The notes under the pieces are model-generated. The model was not told the DNA's origin and did no database searches. It was given only the letters and a program-made list of their open reading frames with translations. A stretch of DNA of 64,000 bases from NCBI RefSeq assembly GCF_000026545.1, contig NC_011601.1; one strand, written 5' to 3'. The DNA is from Escherichia coli O127:H6 str. E2348/69 (GTDB taxonomy: Bacteria > Pseudomonadota > Gammaproteobacteria > Enterobacterales > Enterobacteriaceae). Numbering within the stretch: position 1 is the stretch's first letter; each line of letters begins with the position of its first letter. Made by a program: the position numbers and the translations under genes. Of the stretch, positions 5,697-5,712 are shown piece after piece.

Positions 5697-5712
5697 ATCA
5701 GAGGCGAAAAAG

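Follow-up and report, generated by a model that had tools for sequence, protein, structure and literature searches.

In the Clermont scheme, groups A, B1, C, D, E and clade I of Escherichia coli are arpA-positive. The locus on which this marker is built is the aceK-arpA-iclR region of K-12 (b4016-b4018), and the marker itself, within the Clermont quadruplex, is the 400-bp amplicon of the primers AceK.f and ArpA1.r (Clermont et al., 2013; primers in PMC5322314), which is expected in all E. coli but those of phylogroups B2 and F (PMC10525238). The use of arpA absence as a B2/F marker, from which a first reading made on the sequence alone had set out, thus agrees with the literature (PMC10525238; PMC5322314). 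All Clermont primer sequences used here were taken from PMC5322314 and PMC4322292.

The stretch of DNA analysed here (the window, 64 kb) differs from the genome NZ_LT827011.1 of strain E2348/69 (4427069-4491068) by one mismatch, at position 14237, and its first 25 kb are 100% identical to two chromosomes of E. coli O127:H6 'EPEC E2348/69'. In this window aceK and iclR converge directly on each other, and the elements of the region are as follows.

912 to 2513, plus strand: aceB, malate synthase A, first gene of the aceBAK operon (NCBIfam TIGR01344, 826 bits; RefSeq annotation of NZ_LT827011.1)
2543 to 3847, plus strand: aceA, isocitrate lyase (NCBIfam NF011645, 803 bits; annotated)
3972 to 5696, plus strand: aceK, isocitrate dehydrogenase kinase/phosphatase, 574 aa (NCBIfam NF002804, 940 bits)
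5298 to 5317, plus strand: site of the Clermont primer AceK.f, with one mismatch; the window contains no site for its partner ArpA1.r (primers from PMC5322314)
5649 to 5698, plus strand: predicted RNA hairpin at the 3' end of aceK, with the stop codon in its 3' arm (dG -22.6 kcal/mol, z -4.2; putative function)
5687 to 5704, no strand: empty insertion site, 18 bp, ATTCGTATAAATCAGAGG, against a 2,486-bp arpA-bearing segment in K-12-like genomes (blastn breakpoints)
5697 to 5712, no strand: spacer between the aceK and iclR stop codons, ATCAGAGGCGAAAAAG, the same in strain IAI39 (phylogroup F) and homologous to the 15-bp spacer of E. albertii
5704 to 5735, minus strand: weak terminator-like site for iclR (consensus scan only; 7 pairs, 3 of them G-C; low confidence)
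5713 to 6537, minus strand: iclR, repressor of the glyoxylate bypass operon, 274 aa (NCBIfam NF008601, 568 bits; annotated CDS)
6737 to 10420, plus strand: metH, methionine synthase, the conserved right-hand neighbour (NCBIfam NF007024, 2327 bits; annotated)

The five genes score well over the curated NCBIfam cut-offs, and the matching genome has the same five in its RefSeq annotation. The stop codon of aceK (TAA) occupies 5694-5696 and that of iclR 5713-5715 (TCA on the plus strand, TGA on the minus strand), such that 16 bp, ATCAGAGGCGAAAAAG, remain between them. The sequence-only reading had given the same 16-bp gap, and its coordinates, 5697-5712, are exact; it had also stated that arpA is missing between the two genes, which holds as well, since tblastn found no ArpA homologue in positions 1-12000 of the window and ArpA1.r has no site. 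A chance layout can be rejected because the same unbroken junction is found in 1,316 of 5,426 complete E. coli genomes. Directly observed were the layout of the genes, the positions of the breakpoints, the identity of the strain, the outcome of the in silico PCR, the frequencies in the population and the state of the site in the outgroups. From these we consider it very probable that aceBAK and iclR meet here in their native convergent junction, uninterrupted, in a lineage that never had arpA, in this case that of EPEC O127:H6 E2348/69, of phylogroup B2.

For comparison with the K-12 arrangement we used strain 4FA, a K-12-like genome in which a 2,187-bp arpA gene, now named espL4 by PGAP and encoding 728 aa, lies between aceK and iclR. 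The position that the sequence-only reading had ascribed to arpA in K-12 is therefore the one found, and arpA is present in 4,109 of the 5,426 complete E. coli genomes, nearly always as one chromosomal copy. The flanks of the two loci are orthologous (95.5% nucleotide identity in aceK, 97.1% in iclR) and the neighbours aceBA and metH are common to both, but the K-12 locus has an extra 2,486 bp with arpA/espL4 that the window does not have. The blastn breakpoints place window position 5686 at position 2514 of the 4FA locus (L001) and window position 5705 at 5001; in other words, 2,486 bp of the K-12-like genome are replaced in the window by 18 bp (5687-5704). The GC content of this segment is 36.9%, compared with 53-54% in aceK and iclR. 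Its product matches the Pfam family PF07906 (ShET2 N-terminal region, 324 bits) and contains ankyrin repeats; none of the NCBIfam models matched ArpA. Terminal direct or inverted repeats, sought around the segment as a sign of a mobile element, amounted to short matches at chance level.

In the K-12-like genome the 3' end of arpA overlaps the 3' end of aceK by 32 bp on the opposite strand, and owing to this overlap AceK ends there in SVRYGEMLF and in the window in SVRFV. The full tails are QRFSVRYGEMLF at the end of the 578-aa K-12 protein and QRFSVRFV at the end of the 574-aa protein of the window, which therefore differ in their last residues, YGEMLF and FV, respectively. The arpA gene is itself variable: in 2,105 of the 4,109 arpA-positive genomes, about half, the matches cover only 72% of the K-12 gene, and strain UTME-13 (L088, 1469-3043) carries an intact 1,575-bp allele that has lost about 612 bp in frame and is annotated as 'ShET2/EspL2 family effector'.

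By in silico PCR, the arpA marker is negative in the window: AceK.f anneals at 5298-5317 with one mismatch, ArpA1.r has no site with up to three mismatches across the 64 kb, and the 400-bp amplicon is not formed. At the homologous position of the window 8 of the 20 nucleotides of ArpA1.r are mismatched, whereas in the K-12-like control both primers are exact and the 400-bp amplicon is obtained. The target of ArpA1.r consists of TAGCGTACG followed by GTATGGGGAGA, with the insertion breakpoint between the two parts, so the Clermont assay reads the left-hand insertion junction itself, that is, whether the insertion is present or absent. The window is a textbook instance of the negative state, with no differences from it, in which the forward site is present and the reverse site is absent because the aceK/arpA junction does not exist here. 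The observation at the aceK-iclR junction is an instance of a known typing marker and in this sense was already known; only mildly new are the ancestral state of the empty site, the location of the Clermont reverse primer on the breakpoint and the occurrence of more than one insertion at the site.

The course of events that we propose is the following. A segment of 2.5 kb and low GC content would have been inserted just before the stop codon of aceK in the line of descent of the arpA-positive genomes. The segment would have brought in the gene for ArpA/EspL4, a ShET2-family protein with ankyrin repeats, replacing 18 bp and rewriting the last residues of AceK. The left-hand junction of this insertion is exactly what the Clermont arpA PCR amplifies, and E2348/69, with its empty site, is therefore arpA-negative.

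The markers chuA and yjaA lie outside the window and were read from the near-identical genome NZ_LT827011.1. Both chuA primers are exact and give 288 bp (L005, 13808-14095), in an annotated chuA gene of a chu locus located between dctR and yhiD; both yjaA primers are exact as well and give 211 bp (L002, 10795-11005), about 1 kb upstream of the window start. For the TspE4.C2 primers no site was found in the window or in loci L001-L005, the sequences covered by that search. In the Clermont 2013 key, the combination arpA-negative, chuA-positive, yjaA-positive denotes B2 whatever the state of TspE4.C2, and not F or G. By this key we read the source genome, with its arpA-, chuA+, yjaA+ pattern, as phylogroup B2, which is the outcome of the in silico typing that the sequence-only reading had proposed as a check. 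For the whole-genome placement we relied on the literature, where E2348/69 is an EPEC1 isolate of phylogroup B2 (PMC4464170), and the non-K-12 lineage suspected at the outset is accordingly that of the prototype EPEC strain E2348/69, a published B2 strain (PMC4464170). The junction by itself correctly marks the window as non-K-12, arpA-negative E. coli. In the Achtman MLST scheme E2348/69 is ST15.

A background of phylogroup F or G was weighed against B2. In strain IAI39, of phylogroup F, the 16-bp spacer is identical and AceK likewise measures 574 aa, so the junction alone cannot separate B2 from F. In fact, the IAI39 junction shares with the window the tight convergence, the SVRFV end of AceK and the predicted stop-codon hairpin, and differs from it by point substitutions only. 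As the quadruplex assigns ST117, of phylogroup G, to F (PMC6113867), phylogroup G must also be arpA-negative. The earlier formulation 'B2 or F' was therefore the right resolution for the junction taken alone, and yjaA or the strain identity is needed to arrive at B2. On these, the F or G reading fares poorly: phylogroup F is yjaA-negative (genotype arpA-, chuA+, yjaA-, TspE4.C2-) and IAI39 has neither the yjaA gene nor its primer sites at the locus between rrnE and yjaB, whereas the source genome carries yjaA with exact primer sites. Moreover, over the aceK-iclR block the identity to IAI39 is no higher than 96.5%, whereas Nissle 1917, ATCC 25922 and ABU 83972, known B2 strains that are among the nearest genomes other than those of E2348/69, have 99.0% identity to the first 25 kb of the window, and E2348/69 has been published as B2 (PMC4464170). 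An F or G background is, on this evidence, very improbable.

Equally improbable is a secondary loss, by which the genome would descend from an arpA-positive ancestor and arpA would have been deleted, for instance via IS1, such that its absence would mislead as to the phylogroup. Events of this kind do occur. Strain ET5 retains only an 87-bp remnant of the arpA 3' end, beside an IS1, CFSAN051542 has an IS1 at the aceK-iclR junction, and IAI42 is reported to have one in the arpA amplicon (PMC6113867). A deletion mediated by an IS would be recognized by an IS or an arpA remnant at the junction and by an AceK tail of the K-12 type, but the window junction has neither IS nor remnant, AceK ends in the ancestral SVRFV and not in the YGEMLF tail of K-12, the spacer is the same as in IAI39 and collinear with that of E. 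albertii, and the other markers assign the genome to B2.

An arpA gene elsewhere in the genome, which the sequence-only reading had named as an observation that would speak against it, was sought by megablast with a chimeric query made of the O127-specific wzy-wzx region (3.1 kb) and 1.2 kb of arpA. The three E2348/69 chromosomes ranked first with one matching place each, in the O-antigen part only, while other O90/O127 strains, the positive controls, gave two places each. No arpA copy was thus found in the three E2348/69 chromosomes, in a search that covered chromosomes and copies of about 85% identity or more. The third possibility, that the window belongs to E. albertii or to a cryptic Escherichia clade rather than to E. 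coli sensu stricto, can practically be dismissed. These are not known to give the arpA amplicon either, and the junction of E. albertii is just as tight, but identity to E. coli E2348/69 genomes is 100%, and to E. albertii only 88-94% at the nucleotide level in the same genes.

Within the preferred reading, a native junction that never had arpA, the direction of the change was derived from outgroups. For each GTDB species with AceK one genome was scanned, which gave 80 loci from other Enterobacteriaceae, a set in which E. fergusonii and the cryptic clades I-V are not represented. Both aceK and iclR are present in 76 of the 80 loci; they are convergent in all 76, and none of the 76 has an ArpA homologue. 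In E. albertii NBRC 107761 the spacer is collinear with that of the window and measures 15 bp, ATCAGTGGCGAAAAG, and AceK has the same C-terminus, SVRFV. The tight convergence and the predicted hairpin over the aceK stop codon are also shared, but the iclR stop codon is TAA instead of TGA and the spacer has one A fewer, the remaining differences being point substitutions only. The E. albertii spacer and AceK C-terminus, the absence of ArpA from the 76 outgroup loci and the low GC content of the arpA segment together argue that the empty site is ancestral. We therefore infer a single gain of arpA and not a loss, with a polarity taken from one congeneric outgroup, E. albertii, and from other genera. 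The segment then has the look of an insertion that reached the ancestor of the arpA-positive phylogroups by horizontal transfer. Being arpA-negative would then be a primitive character retained by B2, F and G, and not a deletion that they share as a derived state.

Across the Enterobacteriaceae, the spacing of aceK and iclR ranges from overlapping genes to about 2.3 kb and the AceK tails vary by genus (for example, in Salmonella enterica subsp. diarizonae, L014, 6975-7355), so the 3' end of aceK appears as a generally fluid region.

In the population of complete E. coli genomes, the classes with the unbroken junction and with arpA add up to 5,425 of 5,426, a sum that is only approximate, as strain LP5-1 belongs to neither of them and some genomes with an IS1 may fall into both. 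A perfect mutual exclusion of the unbroken junction and arpA was accordingly rejected, the exceptions including ET5, CFSAN051542, LP5-1, PT62 and MB53. Nor has the history of arpA been strictly vertical, since arpA alleles are reported to have been horizontally transferred into some phylogroup D strains (PMC6113867).

In place of arpA, 3 of the 5,426 genomes (LP5-1, PT62 and MB53, from pigeon or poultry) have a Dcm-type cytosine methyltransferase gene (PF00145 and PF18284) at the aceK-iclR site. In LP5-1 (L006, 6507-8035) this gene enters after the same Arg codon of AceK as arpA does. The iclR gene next to it has 86% identity to that of the window and is more divergent than the iclR of E. albertii, a divergence that suggests that the methyltransferase gene may have been imported along with foreign flanking DNA.

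According to fold prediction, the last 48 nt of aceK form the hairpin listed above. The same hairpin is predicted in IAI39 and also in E. albertii, where one U-A pair has become C-G by a compensatory change, and it is lost in the arpA-positive K-12-like allele and in the methyltransferase allele of LP5-1. Both insertions enter the 3' arm of the hairpin immediately after the Arg codon of SVR, and both destroy the predicted structure and rewrite the C-terminal tail of AceK. At least two unrelated cargoes are thus found at the site, arpA/espL4 in 4,109 genomes and the Dcm-type methyltransferase in three, besides the IS1 elements in or beside the junction. That the stop-codon hairpin (5649-5698) might be conserved in Escherichia and be a recurrent integration hot spot is a tentative proposal that we regard as rather unlikely. 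Should the predicted hairpin serve to stabilise or terminate the transcripts of aceBAK and iclR, the 3' ends of the glyoxylate-shunt operon would be processed differently in phylogroups with and without arpA.

We also considered a conservation of the aceK stop-codon hairpin across the Enterobacteriaceae, which was rejected with a median z of -0.45 over 79 sequences (77 outgroup loci, the window and IAI39). The aceK 3' ends and the C-terminal tails of AceK in the outgroups vary between genera, and several of these 3' ends have apparent REP-type repeats. On the opposite strand, the stem of the terminator-like site of iclR lies in the last iclR codons and the stop codon, and its T-run is the complement of GAAAAAG in the spacer; the consensus scan found 5 sites, compared with 1.2 expected in shuffled sequences. 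A promoter scan of positions 5300-6100 found no sigma-70 promoters.

Other features of the window were noted as well. Between metH and yjbB there are two ORFs, of 106 aa (10480-10800) and 149 aa (10843-11292), with no match in Pfam or NCBIfam; they are present in the F strain IAI39 but not in the K-12-like genome, in which metH and yjbB are 219 bp apart, and they form a small accessory islet. Between yjbB and pepE, an IS1397 is split by an ISEc21 (13180-15899). This nest of elements, within which the sole mismatch to NZ_LT827011.1 falls (14237), is missing at this position in the E2348/69 assembly NZ_CP059840.2 (95% query coverage) and in other B2 genomes.

The sor (sorbose) operon pointed out in the sequence-only reading is present at 17060-22773, between pepE and rluF, and comprises sorE, the PTS components IID, IIC, IIB and IIA, an SDR oxidoreductase and a regulator. 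It also occurs in IAI39, there with an adjoining extra gene for shikimate dehydrogenase. Within the malK-lamB-malM operon, a transposase gene of the IS4-family element ISEc13 (40135-41508) separates lamB from malM, an insertion that may affect the expression of malM; the same transposase protein is encoded by at least two more copies elsewhere in the genome. The annotation of the source genome lists the quinone oxidoreductase gene qorA (52043-53031) as a pseudogene with a frameshift.

An accessory pair of genes, pnuC and one encoding a 334-aa ATPase, lies between alr and tyrB (55684-57242), and the ATPase is similar to the part of NadR with the NMN adenylyltransferase/kinase, though its 141 bits are below the curated cut-off of 341. 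Downstream of tyrB, a second 2-oxoglutarate dehydrogenase/succinyl-CoA synthetase cluster (58699-64000; E1, odhB and lpdA) continues with sucC and sucD past the window end and appears to be an accessory paralogous set of TCA-cycle genes.
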